Positions 28,706 to 36,694 are shown, numbered from the stretch's first letter. The stretch is 64,000 nt of DNA from Acetobacteraceae bacterium (GCA_947455205.1 CANGNF010000009.1:13659-77658), one strand, 5' to 3'. Notes: generated by a model from the sequence alone, not told the origin. Program-made: numbers and translations.

Positions 28706-29776
28706 GTGCAGATCGGCGTCTTCATCCCCATCGGCAACAATGGCTGGCTGATCTCGACCACCTCGCCGCAATACATGCCGAGCTTCGACCTCAACCGCGA
28801 GATCACGCAGAAGGCCGAGCGCTACGGCTTCGAGTTCGCGCTGTCGATGATCAAGCTGCGCGGGTTCGGCGGGCCCAGCCAGTACTGGGACCACAACCTG
28901 GAAAGCTTCACGCTGATGGCGGGGCTTGGGGCGGTGACGACGAAGATCAAGCTCTTCGCCTCGGTCGCGGTGCTGACCATTCCGCCGGCGCTGATCGCCC
29001 GCATGGCGGTGACGAATGACAGCATCAGCCATGGCCGGTTCGGCGTGAACATCGTCTCCGGCTGGCAGAAGGCCGAATACACCCAGATGGGGATGTGGCC
29101 GGGCGAGGCGCATTTCAGCCGCCGCTACGAATACTGCGGCGAATACGTGCAGGTGATGCGCGACCTGTGGGCCAGCGGCGTCAGCAACCTGAAGGGCGAG
29201 TACTTCCAGATGGAGGATTGCCGCGTCAGCCCGACGCCGACGGCGCCGATCGAGGTGATCGCCGCCGGGCAGTCCAACCGGGGCATGCAGTTCGCGGCCG
29301 AATACGCCGACTACAACTTCATCTCCGGCGGCGGCATGAACACGCCGCAGTCGCTGGCGCCCTTCGTCGCCCGGCTGCGCGAGGCCACGGCGCTGAGCGG
29401 GCGGAAATGCGGCGCGCTGGCGCTGACCATGATCATTGCCGACGAGACCGACGAGGCGGCGATGGCCAAGTGGAACCACTACTGCGCCGGTACCGACCTG
29501 GAAGCCCTGGCCTGGCGCGACGGCCAGGCGGCGCAGGACACCGCGGCGGAAGCGCATTCCACCGTGGGCCGCATGGTCCGCAGCGAACGCCTGCCGACCA
29601 ACATGCTGCGCCTCGTCGGCTCCTACGCCACGGTGGCCAGGCTGCTGGACGAATGCGCTGAAATCGACGGGTTGCAGGGCGTGATGCTGACCTTCGACGA
29701 CTACCTGATCGGCATCGAGCAGTTCGGCACGCGCATCCAGCCGCTGATGAAGTGCCGCCAGGGCATTGCCGCATGA
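28706..29776 (+). CDS. rutA: Pyrimidine monooxygenase RutA (FMN-dependent luciferase-like monooxygenase)
   Basis: GTG 28706 with AGGAG 8 nt upstream. [25 protein letters not shown]...[13 protein letters not shown]...[14 protein letters not shown]...[13 protein letters not shown]...RRYEY...[11 protein letters not shown]...[14 protein letters not shown]...RIQPLMKCR is colinear with E. coli RutA as I remember it. Confidence 0.85.
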
Positions 29777-30432
29777 TCGAGGAAGGCAAGACCGCGAAGC
29801 AACTGTGGGCGGAGTTGAAGGCCGGCCCGCCGCGGCCGCGCTTCGGCTTCGGCCGCCGTGCCGCGCTGGTGAATGTGGACGTGCAATGCGGCTACACCCA
29901 GCCCGCGGTGTACCCCACGGCCTATGAGACCGATCCGCGGCAGATCGAATACATCAACCTGCTGGCGCGGGCGTTCCGTGCCAAGGCGCTGCCGGTGGTT
30001 TGGACCTATGTCGCCTACCTGCCCTCGGGCGAGGATTGCGGCGTCTGGGGCACCCGCACCAACACGCCGGACAGCCTGCAGAACACCAAGGTCGGCTCGC
30101 CGAAGGCCGAGCTGGACCCGCGCACAGACCGCGCGCCGAGCGACATCGTCTTCAACAAGCGCATGGCCTCGGCCTTCTTCGAGACGCATCTCCGCTCCCT
30201 GCTCACCTTCCATGGCATCGACACCGTGGTGGTGACGGGCGGCAGCACCTCCGGCTGCGTCCGCGCCACGGTCGTGGAAGGATTGTCGTGCGGCTTCCGC
30301 ATGATCGTGCCCGAGGAATGCACGTCCGACAGGCATGAAGGGCCGCACTTCGCCAACCTCTATGACATGGCGATGAAGTATGCCGACGTGCTGCCGGTAG
30401 CTGCCGTGGCGGAAGCCATCGCGGCTGGCTGA
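29773..30432 (+). CDS. Isochorismatase-family cysteine hydrolase (in the RutB position; N-carbamoylsarcosine amidase-like)
   Basis: ATG 29773 (ATGA overlap with the rutA stop). The Asp-Lys-Cys triad contexts are [19 protein letters not shown] and [15 protein letters not shown]. Confidence 0.8.
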
Positions 30433-30490
30433 GTTCGCCGCGTTGGCGCGGTAGTTGCATCGCGTTGCTCCGACCTCTCGGAGCATCGCC

Positions 30491-33913: not shown

Positions 33914-35538
33914 GCGACGTGGTCCTCGACATTGCCAACCTGACCATCGGCCTGCCGCCCGGCGCCGACCGCGCTGCCGCCGTGCAGGGCATGAACCTGA
34001 TGCTGCGCGCCGGGGAGGTGACGTGCCTGGTCGGTGAATCCGGCTCCGGCAAGTCGCTCGCCGCGCGGGCCGTGCTGGGGCTGCTGCCGCCGCGGGTCGG
34101 CGTCACGGCCGGCAGCATCATGTTCGAGGGTCAGGACCTCACCAAGGCCACGCCGGCGCAGCTGGCAAAAATCCGCGGTGCGCGGATCGGCATGATCTTC
34201 CAGGAACCGATGACGGCGCTGAACCCGCTGCACAGCATCGGCCGGCAGATCGAGGAAGTGCTCAGCATCCACACCTCGCTCGACCGCCGCGCGCGACGCG
34301 AGAAGGTAGTGGCGCTGCTGGCGGATGTGCACCTGCCGGAGCCGGCGCGGATCGCGCGTTCCTTCCCGCACCAGCTTTCCGGCGGCCAGCGCCAGCGGGC
34401 GATGATCGCCATGGCGCTGGCGCTGGACCCCAAGCTGCTGATCGCGGACGAACCCACCACGGCGCTGGACGTGACGACGCAGGCGCAGATCCTGCACCTG
34501 ATCCATGAGTTGCAGCGCAGCCACGGCACCGCCGTGCTGTTCATCACCCATGATTTCGGCGTGGTCGCGGATATCGCCGACCAGGTGGCGGTGCTGCAAC
34601 GCGGCGTGCTGGTGGAGGCCGGGCCGCGCGACGCGGTGCTGAACGACCCGCAGCACGCCTACACGCAAGCCTTGCTGGCCGCGGTGCCGCGCCTGGTGGT
34701 GCCGCAACGCGCGCCGACCGAGCCCGGCATCGTGATGCTGGAGAGCATCAAGGCGCGCAAGGAATATCGCCAGCGCTCGCTGTTCGGTCGTGGCCGCAGC
34801 ACGGTGGCGCTGGATGCCGTCAGCGTCACGCTCCGGCGCGGCGAGACGCTGGGGCTGGTGGGCGAATCCGGCTCCGGCAAGTCCACGCTGGCTCGCGCCA
34901 TGACCCGGCTGCTGACCATCGACAGCGGCGACATCGTGCTGGATGGCGACGAGATCACCCGCATTCCCCAGCGGCTGATGCGGCCGCACCGGCAGAAGAT
35001 CCAGATGATCTTCCAGGATCCATATGCCTCGCTGAATCCGCGCCAGCGCATCGTCGACGTGATCGCGGAAGGCCCGATCATCCATGGCCTGCCGCCGGCG
35101 GAAGCCGAGGCACGGGCGCGCGAGTTGCTCGGCCTGGTCGGGCTGGACCCTTCGGCGGCGGATCGCTACCCGCATGAGTTCTCCGGTGGCCAGCGCCAGC
35201 GCATCGGCATTGCCCGCGCCCTGGCACTGCGGCCGCAGGTGCTGGTGGCGGATGAACCTGTCAGCGCGCTGGATGTCAGCGTGCAGGCGCAGGTGCTGGC
35301 CTTGCTGGCTGATATCAAGGCGCGGTTGCAGCTCTCGCTGCTGTTCGTGACGCATGACCTGCGCGTGGCGTTGCAGATCTGCGACCGCATCGCGGTGATG
35401 CGCCATGGCGCAATCGTGGAACTGGCGGATACCGCGGACATCTACCATTCGCCGCAGCACCCCTATACCAAGGCCCTGTTCGCGGCGGTGCCCGGAGCCG
35501 CCTGGTTGCAGAAGGAAGCCGCCCATGCACCACCCTGA
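33910..35538 (+). CDS. Fused tandem ABC ATPase (two nucleotide-binding domains, GsiA-like)
   Basis: Trimmed to ATG 33910 (ATGA overlap). Two Walker A motifs are present (GESGSGKS twice). There are two signatures (LSGGQRQR, FSGGQRQR) and two Walker B motifs (LLIADEPT, VLVADEPV). Confidence 0.9.
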   Translation: MSDVVLDIANLTIGLPPGADRAAAVQGMNLMLRAGEVTCLVGESGSGKSLAARAVLGLLPPRVGVTAGSIMFEGQDLTKATPAQLAKIRGARIGMIFQEPMTALNPLHSIGRQIEEVLSIHTSLDRRARREKVVALLADVHLPEPARIARSFPHQLSGGQRQRAMIAMALALDPKLLIADEPTTALDVTTQAQILHLIHELQRSHGTAVLFITHDFGVVADIADQVAVLQRGVLVEAGPRDAVLNDPQHAYTQALLAAVPRLVVPQRAPTEPGIVMLESIKARKEYRQRSLFGRGRSTVALDAVSVTLRRGETLGLVGESGSGKSTLARAMTRLLTIDSGDIVLDGDEITRIPQRLMRPHRQKIQMIFQDPYASLNPRQRIVDVIAEGPIIHGLPPAEAEARARELLGLVGLDPSAADRYPHEFSGGQRQRIGIARALALRPQVLVADEPVSALDVSVQAQVLALLADIKARLQLSLLFVTHDLRVALQICDRIAVMRHGAIVELADTADIYHSPQHPYTKALFAAVPGAAWLQKEAAHAPP

Positions 35539-36694
35539 AACCGGCTTCCTGCCCGGCCCGCGCCACACCTTGCCGGGGGCGCCAGGCGGTCCGCTGGCCG
35601 GCCTGACCTTCGCAGCGAAGGACCTGTTCGACGTCGCCGGCGTGCCGACCATCGGCGGCAATCCGGATTGGGGGCGGACGCATCCGGTGCCGTCAGCGCA
35701 TTCATGGGCCGTGCAGCGGCTGCTGGAAGGCGGCGCCGACATGGTCGGCAAGACCATCACCTGCGAAATCTCGCTGGGCATCCTCGGCTACAACCAGTTC
35801 TACGGCACGCCGCCCAACCCGGCGGCGCCGGGCTGCCTCCCCGGTGGGTCGTCCTCCGGCTCGGCCTCGGTCGTCGCCGCCGGGCTGGCCGATGTGGCCT
35901 TGGGCACGGACAGTGGCGGTTCCGTGCGCGTGCCGGCCAGCCTGTGCGGGCTCTACGGGCTGCGGCCGACACATGGGCGCATCTCGGTCGCCGGGCTGCT
36001 GGCCCAGGCGCCGACCTTCGACACGGTGGGCTGGTTTGCCCGCGACGCCGAAACCTTCGGCCGCGTGGCCGCCGTGATGTTCGGCGAGGCGCTGCCCGCC
36101 GCCGAGGCCGCCGGCGTACTGCTGGCCGAGGACGCCTTCGCCCTGGCCGACCCCGAGGTCGCCGCCGCGCTGCAACCTGCCGCCGAGCGGCTGGGCGCGC
36201 AATTTGGCGGGCTGACGCGCATGACGCTGGGCGAACCGGGCGAGTTGGAGACCTGGGCGGGGCAGCGCAACATCCTGCAGCGCGCGGAGTCCTGGGCCAC
36301 CTTCCGGCCCTGGATCGAGAAGGAAAACCCGACCTTCGCCTACAACATCGCCCGCAACCTGGCCGGTGGCTCCGCCATTACCGCGGAGCAGGTGGCGGTG
36401 GCCAAGGTGGTGCGGCGGCAGGTGGTGGACCAGGCGCGGCGGCTGCTGAAAGGCGGCGCCATCCTCTGCCTGCCGACCACGCCCTTCCCGGCGCCGCCGC
36501 TGGGCCTGCCGCTGCCGGAGATCGATGCGCTGCAGGCGCGGATCGGCATCACCACGTCCTTCGCCGGGCTGTGCGGGCTGCCGCAGCTGAACCTGCCGCT
36601 GGGCAAGGTGGGCGGCAAGCCGGTGGGGCTTTCCATCATCGGCTGGCGCGGCAGCGATACGCGGCTGGCCGCGATAGCCCGCGCCCTGGGCTAG
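35525..36694 (+). CDS. Amidase-signature family amidase (short, roughly 390-aa type)
   Basis: Trimmed to ATG 35525 (14-nt overlap with the ATPase gene). Contains FAAKDLFDVAGVPT and GGSSSGSASVVA...GTDSGGSVRVPAS. Confidence 0.85.
   Translation: MHHPETGFLPGPRHTLPGAPGGPLAGLTFAAKDLFDVAGVPTIGGNPDWGRTHPVPSAHSWAVQRLLEGGADMVGKTITCEISLGILGYNQFYGTPPNPAAPGCLPGGSSSGSASVVAAGLADVALGTDSGGSVRVPASLCGLYGLRPTHGRISVAGLLAQAPTFDTVGWFARDAETFGRVAAVMFGEALPAAEAAGVLLAEDAFALADPEVAAALQPAAERLGAQFGGLTRMTLGEPGELETWAGQRNILQRAESWATFRPWIEKENPTFAYNIARNLAGGSAITAEQVAVAKVVRRQVVDQARRLLKGGAILCLPTTPFPAPPLGLPLPEIDALQARIGITTSFAGLCGLPQLNLPLGKVGGKPVGLSIIGWRGSDTRLAAIARALG

Follow-up and report, generated by a model that had tools for sequence, protein, structure and literature searches.

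What does a RutA-type oxygenase do when the rest of the rut operon is missing around it, and do the importer and amidase genes that follow it serve the same pathway? The question is raised by a 64,000-nucleotide stretch of DNA (here called the window; GCA_947455205.1, CANGNF010000009.1:13659-77658) from a lake-water Acetobacteraceae assembly, which is 94% complete. The original prediction saw there an orphan rutA that had been joined to a cysteine hydrolase, a transporter and an amidase in one unit, and that acted on a different, imported cyclic amide or ureide. We consider it probable, with some reserve, that two independent units stand head to tail instead: a minimal variant Rut pyrimidine pathway (28706-30432) and a self-contained five-gene cassette (30444-36694).

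RutA and its surroundings

The first unit and its upstream region hold the following features:

27795..28502, + strand: GST gene (Pfam GST_N/GST_C), upstream neighbour of rutA
28640..28700, + strand: block in the GST-rutA spacer, GGTTTACC..TGC.GC..CGCAGCAT, then AGGAG
28706..29776, + strand: rutA, FMN-dependent pyrimidine monooxygenase of the luciferase-like family; start GTG, with AGGAG 10 nt upstream
29773..30432, + strand: iso, isochorismatase-family cysteine hydrolase (PF00857); its start ATG overlaps the rutA stop as ATGA

RutA enzymes cut uracil or thymine between N3 and C4, with FMNH2 supplied by a reductase. The window protein had been described as colinear with E. coli RutA, and it aligned over the full length: it scored 577.6 bits with the equivalog model TIGR03612 (cut-off 498.3; model positions 2-354 of 355) and 509 bits with the E. 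coli RutA structures 6SGG/5WAN (6SGG residues 1-354), at 61% identity to the E. coli protein. The residues of its O2 pocket are kept as L65/S105/N134/V136/F224 (E. coli numbering), and W139 is likewise retained. In the reference set, which is L65, T105, N134, V136 and F224, a T105S variant was reported to retain ~80% of the activity (PMC7662398). Judged from its sequence, the protein is a genuine RutA of the uracil-ring-opening oxygenase type. A second RutA copy, as non-canonical as that of the window, is also present.

The GST gene precedes RutA in the related loci L018, L019 and L020 as well. It is probably not co-transcribed with rutA; a G+C-rich hairpin and a spacer of 203 nt come after it. 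The block within this spacer is conserved in an alignment of four relatives and represents a candidate promoter or operator of rutA-iso.

As had been noticed, rutA is orphaned: no homologues of RutB, C, D, E, F or G were detected within the window, and no canonical rut operon was found in the window or elsewhere in the assembly. The further remark that flavin reductase and RutE are missing is correct only of the cluster; the genome does encode candidates for both. RutC-, RutD-, RutE- and RutF-like genes are located on four different contigs, including a RutF-like gene on contig C83 (53% identity; 212 bits, below the equivalog cut-off of 254.75) and a RutE orthologue (59% identity; 304 bits, above the NF003768 cut-off). 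No RutB scored above its cut-off anywhere in the assembly, the best candidates being two weak RutB-like isochorismatases on other contigs (123 and 84 bits). The locus resembles the E. coli system (rutABCDEFG and rutR) in its orthologue-grade RutA and in the isochorismatase-family hydrolase gene directly after rutA, and the genome also encodes RutF-like and RutE genes. On the other hand, a hydrolase other than RutB is present, the locus lacks rutC, D, E, F, G and R, the helpers are scattered, and the ancestral importer was a Pot-type ABC system that has since been deleted.

The hydrolase coupled to rutA

Iso has an Asp36-Lys129-Cys162 triad which aligns with that of RutB. It shows 29% identity to E. 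coli RutB and scored 34.9 bits with the RutB model TIGR03614, far under the cut-off of 377.95. Its top-scoring solved relative was a maleamate amidase rather than a ureido hydrolase, namely Ami (4L07, 119 bits); N-carbamoylsarcosine amidase (109 and 97 bits), NicF (85 bits) and RutB (37 bits) scored lower, which agrees with the earlier view that the hydrolase is nearer to N-carbamoylsarcosine amidase than to RutB. Ami from Pseudomonas putida S16, NicF from Bordetella (3UAO) and N-carbamoylsarcosine amidase (1NBA) have the fold and the Asp-Lys-Cys triad in common with Iso, and each acts on a terminal carboxamide or ureido group adjoining a carboxylate. Iso differs from them in that it passes the cut-off of none of the family models and in that its neighbours are RutA, dihydropyrimidinase or PuuE-like genes, not the pathway settings of these enzymes; no nicotinate or N-methylhydantoin pathway families were detected in Pfam/NCBIfam scans of the immediate neighbours. 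It is most likely that Iso, a predicted ureido or amide hydrolase, stands in for RutB.

A RutA tree placed the window RutA within a distinct clade of 33 rows (SH-aLRT 95), in 29 of which Iso is nearby, while the RutAs linked to RutB form a separate clade, grouped with E. coli. The rutA-iso pair is conserved across Acetobacteraceae, and an Iso or a RutB(-like) gene was present in 12 of the 12 sampled genomes of the family bearing a RutA of the window's clade. In 10 of the 33 rows, a RutE orthologue (61–65% identity to E. coli RutE; NF003768 303 bits, cut-off 152) comes directly after Iso or RutA, which suggests that pyrimidine cleavage yields its usual three-carbon product in these ten relatives.

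Seen from the side of Iso, RutA lies at ≤7 kb in 29 of 80 loci, and 73 of the 80 link Iso to RutA, PuuE-like or dihydropyrimidinase genes. In other lineages, Iso adjoins dihydropyrimidinase (NF009941 732 bits, cut-off 647) or PuuE-allantoinase-like genes, whose enzymes yield ureido acids; in Burkholderiales, it is accompanied by PuuE-like pairs and by a LeuC-like dehydratase. Both the cassette of Iso with two PuuE-like genes and the dihydropyrimidinase-Iso-oxidase cluster contain the same Iso family (65–81% identity), each with an adjacent opener of a cyclic ureide or imide ring, whereas in the window RutA, an oxygenase, is the sole ring opener, and neither the PuuE-like genes nor the importer are left.

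The ATGA overlap of rutA and iso is a deletion scar, because remnants of a Pot-type ABC importer persist between both genes in relatives: 173 codons of a Pot-type binding protein (71% identity) and a potA stub in L018, and 50 codons in L020. The pair stayed together after the intervening transporter genes were deleted, which supports a functional tie of rutA to this non-RutB hydrolase. The ancestral operon probably comprised rutA, the Pot-type importer and iso, with rutE or PuuE-like genes behind them, and loss of the importer in the window's lineage would have created the overlap. In the route that we propose, RutA would obtain reduced FMN from the RutF-like reductase encoded elsewhere and oxidatively open a ring of uracil or thymine type, giving a 3-ureidoacrylate-type acid, the ureido/amide end of which Iso would hydrolyse to ammonia and CO2. 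Aminoacrylate would then decay to malonic semialdehyde, to be reduced by the RutE orthologue, also encoded elsewhere. A RutA working with a non-RutB cysteine hydrolase would be a variant on the known Rut pathway.

Automatic annotation names the Iso subfamily maleamate amidohydrolase or N-carbamoylsarcosine amidase. Perhaps, and we put this forward tentatively, the subfamily is a general ureido-acid amidohydrolase which replaces RutB, and beta-ureidopropionase beside dihydropyrimidinase, while its partner RutA clade would define a second Rut pathway, one tied to an importer and perhaps acting on a pyrimidine other than uracil. Iso would in that case be an unrecognised pyrimidine-catabolic enzyme in hundreds of alpha- and betaproteobacterial species. 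Canonical rutABCD and the RutA-importer-Iso set occur together in L070, L073, G036 and G063, which speaks against a simple redundancy of both on uracil.

The importer and amidase cassette

The features downstream of iso are:

30444..30459, + strand: sigma-54-like -24/-12 element, TGGCGCGGTAGTTGCA, whose end lies 31 nt upstream of the binding-protein ATG; it marks the left cassette edge
30491..32110, + strand: family-5 (peptide/opine/nickel type) binding protein with signal peptide; PF00496, 276 bits
32115..33086 (probable start; alternative ATG at 32076), + strand: permease of DppB/NikB type; PF00528, PF19300
33086..33913 (probable), + strand: permease of DppC/OppC type; PF00528, PF12911
33910..35538, + strand: fused double ABC ATPase, YejF/GsiA-like, with two ABC_tran domains and oligo_HPY; start and permease stop overlap as ATGA
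35525..36694, + strand: short amidase-signature enzyme, 389 aa, last gene of the cassette; 14-nt overlap with the ATPase gene
36731..37411, - strand: convergent TetR-family regulator (PF00440, PF14246), part of a divergent EmrAB efflux unit

A complete family-5 importer with a GsiA-like fused double ATPase had been recognised from the start, and the Pfam/NCBIfam domains confirmed it: an SBP_bac_5 binding protein, two BPD_transp_1 permeases and an ATPase with an oligo_HPY tail. The top solved relative of the binding protein was the agropinic-acid binder AgaA (6HLX, 156 bits), and neither this protein nor the permeases reached any substrate-specific equivalog cut-off (e.g. GsiB 165 vs 594, DppA 101 vs 1005). 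The fused ATPase scored 543 bits with YejF and 516 bits with GsiA, both under the respective cut-offs; it passed the single-domain cut-offs of NikD (442 vs 319) and NikE (419 vs 333) for nickel and of CntF (421 vs 385) and CntD (421 vs 380) for staphylopine, but these are probably summed domain scores and assign no substrate. The full architecture is common to the Opp/Dpp/Nik/Gsi-type importers (GsiABCD, YejABEF, the AgaA opine system), and GsiA and YejF are likewise fused double ATPases; the window importer differs from them in its coupling to an amidase-signature enzyme and in its own sigma-54-like promoter element.

The short amidase, correctly predicted to start 14 nt inside the ATPase gene, scored 196 bits with PF01425 and 444 bits with NF006169 (cut-off 391). 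It aligns over its full length with the Thermus amidase 2DC0 and carries the GGSSSGS and KD motifs, including the catalytic Lys of amidase-signature enzymes. Its relatives at 45–58% identity have no conserved partner gene.

The sigma-54-like element has one mismatch to TGGCAC-N5-TTGCW. Consensus matches with ≤2 mismatches are not enriched in the window (35 found, 37.5 expected); the element itself is conserved in every cassette copy, and its spacing to the ATG is unchanged in L018, L019, G018:C9 and L183. We infer that it could act as the cassette's own promoter.

In a same-genus genome, locus L020 reads GST-RutA-Iso-TetR with tetR directly after iso, and a 186-nt spacer with a hairpin and a T-run occupies the place of the cassette. 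Here the cassette is found on a different contig, C9, flanked by a glycosyltransferase/Wza cluster on one side and by a recombinase fragment on the other, at 93% nucleotide identity (99% amino-acid identity for the binding protein). As the sister genome is a metagenome bin, the L020 and C9 contigs could derive from different strains. The five cassette genes were also found on the metagenome contigs L179 and L182 (81–87% identity; amidase 56–70%), with neither RutA nor Iso near them. The cassette adjoins rutA-iso in three genomes, those of the window, L018 and L019. Contigs from several lake samples span both junctions of the importer block with no difference, which rules out that faulty assembly produced the adjacency. 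In the window, no terminator was detected from iso to the binding-protein gene, and the units could therefore be coupled by read-through. Given the other contig in the same-genus genome, the copies in L179 and L182 and the conserved sigma-54-like element, the claim that importer and amidase belong to the same pathway unit as RutA is not supported; they probably make up a separate cassette. It is probably nitrogen-regulated, would import and hydrolyse some small amide, and may have been inserted between iso and tetR in the window's lineage, not being a conserved part of the RutA route.

Alternative readings of the locus

If all eight genes formed one pathway, the family-5 importer would take up some cyclic amide or ureide that is not uracil, the ring would be opened oxidatively by RutA, and Iso and the amidase would each cut one amide bond of the product. 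This would suit the co-directional, tightly spaced genes with no terminator-like site after iso, an arrangement retained in the window, L018 and L019, and the Pot-type importer was lost in the lineage, leaving a place that a new importer could take. We nevertheless find it improbable: the cassette is missing from the same-genus locus and present elsewhere in that genome, its copies in L179 and L182 have neither RutA nor Iso nearby, it has a conserved promoter-like element of its own, the amidase relatives keep no partner, and among the solved family-5 relatives listed none is named as a pyrimidine binder.

RutA and Iso might instead cooperate on another cyclic imide or ureide than uracil or thymine, with Iso as a maleamate-type half-amidase on the ring-opened acid. 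The distinct RutA clade, its coexistence with canonical rutABCD in some genomes, an ancestral importer of Pot type rather than RutG type, and the maleamate amidases Ami and NicF among the top solved Iso relatives all agree with this, and the PuuE-like pairs and LeuC-like dehydratase in Burkholderiales would suit maleate-type acids. Yet the 61% identity to E. coli RutA with a score above the equivalog cut-off and a kept O2 pocket, the RutE orthologues that imply a malonic semialdehyde product, and an Iso distribution that, in genomes where this RutA clade is present, complements that of RutB(-like) genes make it rather unlikely, and a different ring substrate is not needed to explain the locus. 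That the adjacency is meaningless, with an ordinary uracil oxygenase whose hydrolase partner is encoded elsewhere and Iso in an unrelated pathway, seems very improbable to us. Iso stands without RutA in 51 of the 80 loci, and the two weak RutB-like isochorismatases are encoded on other contigs of the genome; against this, the genome has no RutB above cut-off, Iso is near nearly all RutAs of the clade (29/33), and the rutA-iso pair outlived the deletion of everything in between.

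The rutA-iso pair and other rut genes of the genome

The original prediction treated 28706-36694 as one pathway for another cyclic amide or ureide, in which an orphan rutA is joined by an isochorismatase-family cysteine hydrolase (here Iso), an ABC importer and an amidase. Its sequence-level statements on this block were all correct, and the finding is real and was in part well read: the conserved pairing of RutA with a non-RutB hydrolase stood, whereas the importer and the amidase turned out to be a separate cassette. What is of interest is this pair, plus the expansion of RutA paralogues in Acetobacteraceae; the functions given below for the pair and for the cassette are all what we infer. 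The pair consists of:

28706-29776, plus strand: rutA, GTG start at 28706 with AGGAG before it; TIGR03612, 577.6 bits vs a cut-off of 498.3
29773-30432, plus strand: iso, ATG start at 29773 within the RutA stop codon; isochorismatase-family cysteine hydrolase

The source assembly (5.7 Mb, 171 contigs, 94% complete) includes the window as contig C9:13659-77658, with a G+C content of about 70%. The nearest named relatives of the window genes are Acetobacteraceae, e.g. Rhodovarius, Roseomonas, Belnapia and Siccirubricoccus, and lake-water metagenomes contain DNA near-identical to the window.

The window RutA aligned end to end with the E. coli RutA structures (509 bits, 61% identity), in line with the colinearity stated in the prediction. 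As for loss of active-site residues, the positions of the O2 pocket, L65, T105, N134, V136 and F224 in RutA (PMC7662398), are occupied by L, S, N, V and F, and a T105S variant was reported to keep about 80% of the activity (PMC7662398). Glu292, which borders the substrate-side cavity, was dropped as a specificity marker since it is variable even among RutB-linked RutAs. No sigma-54 pattern was found 5′ of rutA. A GST gene (window 27795-28705 region) lies 5′ of rutA in 4/4 close relatives, and at another locus (L152) a GST of 58% identity is divergent to another RutA; as a speculation, the GST might serve to reduce a peracid formed by RutA.

A search of the 94% complete assembly for a canonical rut operon elsewhere found none, and no RutB reached the cut-off, the best scoring 123 bits. 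The following rut-like genes were detected, the first four each on a different contig:

Contig C83: RutF-like reductase, 212 bits vs 254.75; 53% identity to E. coli RutF
Contig C84: RutE orthologue, 304 bits vs 152; 59% identity
Contig C40: RutC-like gene, 166.2 bits vs 169.1
Contig C56: RutD-like gene, 189 bits vs 238.5
L009:10491-17776 (G000:C1:100490-107775), minus strand: second RutA array, with an alpha/beta hydrolase, an orphan family-5 binding protein and RutA

Neither the RutF-like gene nor the RutE gene has pyrimidine-related neighbours. The second RutA-grade gene, on C1, scored 590.7 bits and is 61% identical to the window copy. Its array, which is conserved in a same-genus genome (L117), has beside it a second luciferase-like monooxygenase, in divergent orientation, and an Amidohydro_3 gene.

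RutA clades and the likely role of Iso

Annotation of the Rut pathway relies on the presence of RutA and RutB. Among 121 sampled Acetobacteraceae genomes, RutA was above cut-off in 27, with one to five copies each, RutB in only 6, and Iso was found in 14. In many Acetobacteraceae, as in the window's genome, two to five RutA-grade genes are present, and most have no RutB. In a tree of 91 RutA sequences, with flanks retrieved for 58 RutA genes, the window RutA fell within a 33-row clade (SH-aLRT 95), at which Iso lies within 6.5 kb in 29 rows and a RutE orthologue is present in 10. The RutB-linked RutAs and E. coli formed a separate 11-row clade (SH-aLRT 97), and the second RutA copy of the window's genome belonged to a third clade of 17 rows.

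The sampled Acetobacteraceae (loci L098-L155) show a strong expansion of RutA-grade genes, which occur in at least six context types; in one of these, RutA lies within a Pot-type ABC operon. Of the 121 genomes, nine have RutA and neither RutB nor Iso. Two Reyranella-like loci (L070 and L073) bring together, within 12 kb, a canonical rutABCD set, a Pot-type importer that is divergent and has Iso at its end, and a tandem of two further RutA paralogues, thus three RutA genes from two clades in one locus.

Iso is distinct from RutB (35 bits vs a cut-off of 378; 29% identity), although its Asp36-Lys129-Cys162 align with the RutB triad. Its solved relatives rank as maleamate amidase Ami (119 bits), N-carbamoylsarcosine amidase (109 and 97 bits), NicF (85 bits) and RutB (37 bits), so the hydrolase was rightly placed closer to N-carbamoylsarcosine amidase than to RutB. 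We found 496 relatives of Iso by scanning one genome per species and kept the best 80 (65–94% identity). Within 7 kb of Iso, 73 of these 80 loci carry a gene for a cyclic ureide or imide ring-opening enzyme, a count that is not one of independent samples as the loci are phylogenetically related. RutA is the neighbour in 29/80, PuuE-like proteins in 40/80 (8 of them with RutA too) and dihydropyrimidinase in 12/80 (NF009941, 732 bits vs a cut-off of 647). The PuuE-like proteins scored 85–142 bits with TIGR03212, under its cut-off of 425, and their best solved relative is the PuuE allantoinase 3CL6.

Three arrangements recur in Acetobacteraceae: RutA-Iso-RutE; RutA, a Pot-type ABC importer (ATPase, two permeases and an SBP_bac_6 binding protein), Iso and then RutE; and RutA, the same type of importer, Iso and then two PuuE-allantoinase-like genes with no RutE.

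RutA yields 3-ureidoacrylate, dihydropyrimidinase yields 3-ureidopropionate and allantoinase-type enzymes yield ureido acids, while N-carbamoylsarcosine amidase, RutB and maleamate amidase cleave a terminal carboxamide or ureido group near a carboxylate. From the ring-opener linkage and the reactions of these hydrolase families, we infer that Iso hydrolyses the ureido end of the RutA product. Moreover, each of the 12 sampled genomes with a 33-row-clade RutA carries iso or else a gene for RutB or a RutB-like protein, and this complementary distribution fits Iso doing RutB's job. That Iso is instead the half-amidase of an imide route remains a rival. A role as the maleamate amidase (NicF) of a nicotinate-type route was set aside at the window locus, since Pfam and NCBIfam scans of the immediate neighbours gave no nicotinate-type pathway family and the RutE linkage in relatives better matches pyrimidine cleavage.

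Should Iso take the place of RutB, annotation underestimates how widely freshwater and soil bacteria use pyrimidine nitrogen, and many proteins are mislabelled "maleamate amidohydrolase". The literature searched, in full text, gave no published account of RutA paired with a hydrolase other than RutB, nor of an isochorismatase-family ureidopropionase. In five Reyranella/Enhydrobacter loci (L049, L057, L065, L094 and L096), Iso lies 3′ of a sarcosine-oxidase-like fused flavoprotein of 971 aa, with 2Fe-2S, pyridine-nucleotide disulphide reductase-type and DAO domains. There, Iso converges on dihydropyrimidinase, and the conserved cluster also has a DapA-like gene and a BMP-type binding protein close by.

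Loss of an importer between rutA and iso

Comparison with related loci shows that the ATGA overlap of rutA and iso is a deletion scar. Relics of an importer are present in two relatives:

L018:9420-9993 and L020:9826-9993: pseudogene remnants, with the 3′ end of a Pot-type binding-protein gene joined to a potA stub

In L018, which keeps the window-like arrangement, rutA and iso are separated by 584 nt holding the last 173 residues of a Pot-type binding protein (71% identity, in-frame stop) fused to an ATPase-gene stub. In L020, from the sister genome G018, only the last 50 codons of the binding-protein gene remain, and no importer remnant is left in the window or in L019, also of window-like arrangement. 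The relics document a stepwise loss of the ancestral Pot-type importer; therefore the lineage lost its dedicated importer and kept rutA and iso together. The rutA-iso pair is a conserved unit.

The importer-amidase cassette

The remainder of the 8-kb block (30444-36694) encodes a full family-5 ABC importer, in which the double ATPase is fused, and then an amidase of 389 aa; the amidase gene overlaps the ATPase gene by 14 nt. The importer and the amidase are a juxtaposed separate unit that made the locus resemble a new eight-gene pathway. G018, a metagenome bin of the same genus, shares its gene order with the window between about 19.9 kb and 46.7 kb, and its iso-tetR gap is only 186 nt, with a hairpin and then a T-run. 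Its cassette lies on a different contig (its C9) with 93% nucleotide identity (binding protein 99% and amidase 96% identical at the protein level), between a glycosyltransferase/Wza-type polysaccharide cluster and a recombinase-domain fragment. This fragment (L177:17734-18426), directly 3′ of the cassette copy, is a 230-aa reading frame that has no serine recombinase domain other than 'Recombinase', and hints at how the cassette moved.

The five genes recur in unchanged order on two metagenome contigs, L179 and L182 (transporter proteins 84–87%, amidase 56–70% identical), and a third (L180) has the four transporter genes (80–83% identity) before its end; no RutA or Iso was found near these copies within the available 4 to 10 kb. 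Logan contigs from several lake samples span both window cassette junctions without difference; therefore the insertion is real in this lake population.

Every cassette copy has TGGCGC-N5-(T/G)TGC(A/T) ending 31 nt before the binding-protein ATG (window 30444-30459), a consensus match preserving the GG-N10-GC spacing of sigma-54 promoters. Its fixed distance in copies that have no upstream sequence in common speaks for a putative sigma-54-like promoter carried by the cassette itself. Read-through from iso into the cassette may occur; the promoter/terminator scan gave no sigma-70-like sites and only two terminator-like sites, both intragenic and fewer than in shuffles. Same-strand, tight and overlapping genes can be two units: at this locus, what looks like an extended operon is a mobile importer-amidase cassette, and only the sister genome revealed the two-unit structure.

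The best solved relative of the cassette binding protein is the agropinic-acid binder AgaA (156 bits). The amidase resembles Thermus amidase and, more distantly, malonamidase E2, and its relatives at 45–58% identity in a 401-genome class sample showed no recurring neighbours (45 matching genomes, including the unpublished G358, on which no claim is based). Another amidase gene (40251-41570, within 40237-41669), after an EmrAB-type efflux pair, is absent from the otherwise collinear L020, in which 14405 joins 14438. It is a presence/absence difference and not a fixed part of the efflux unit.
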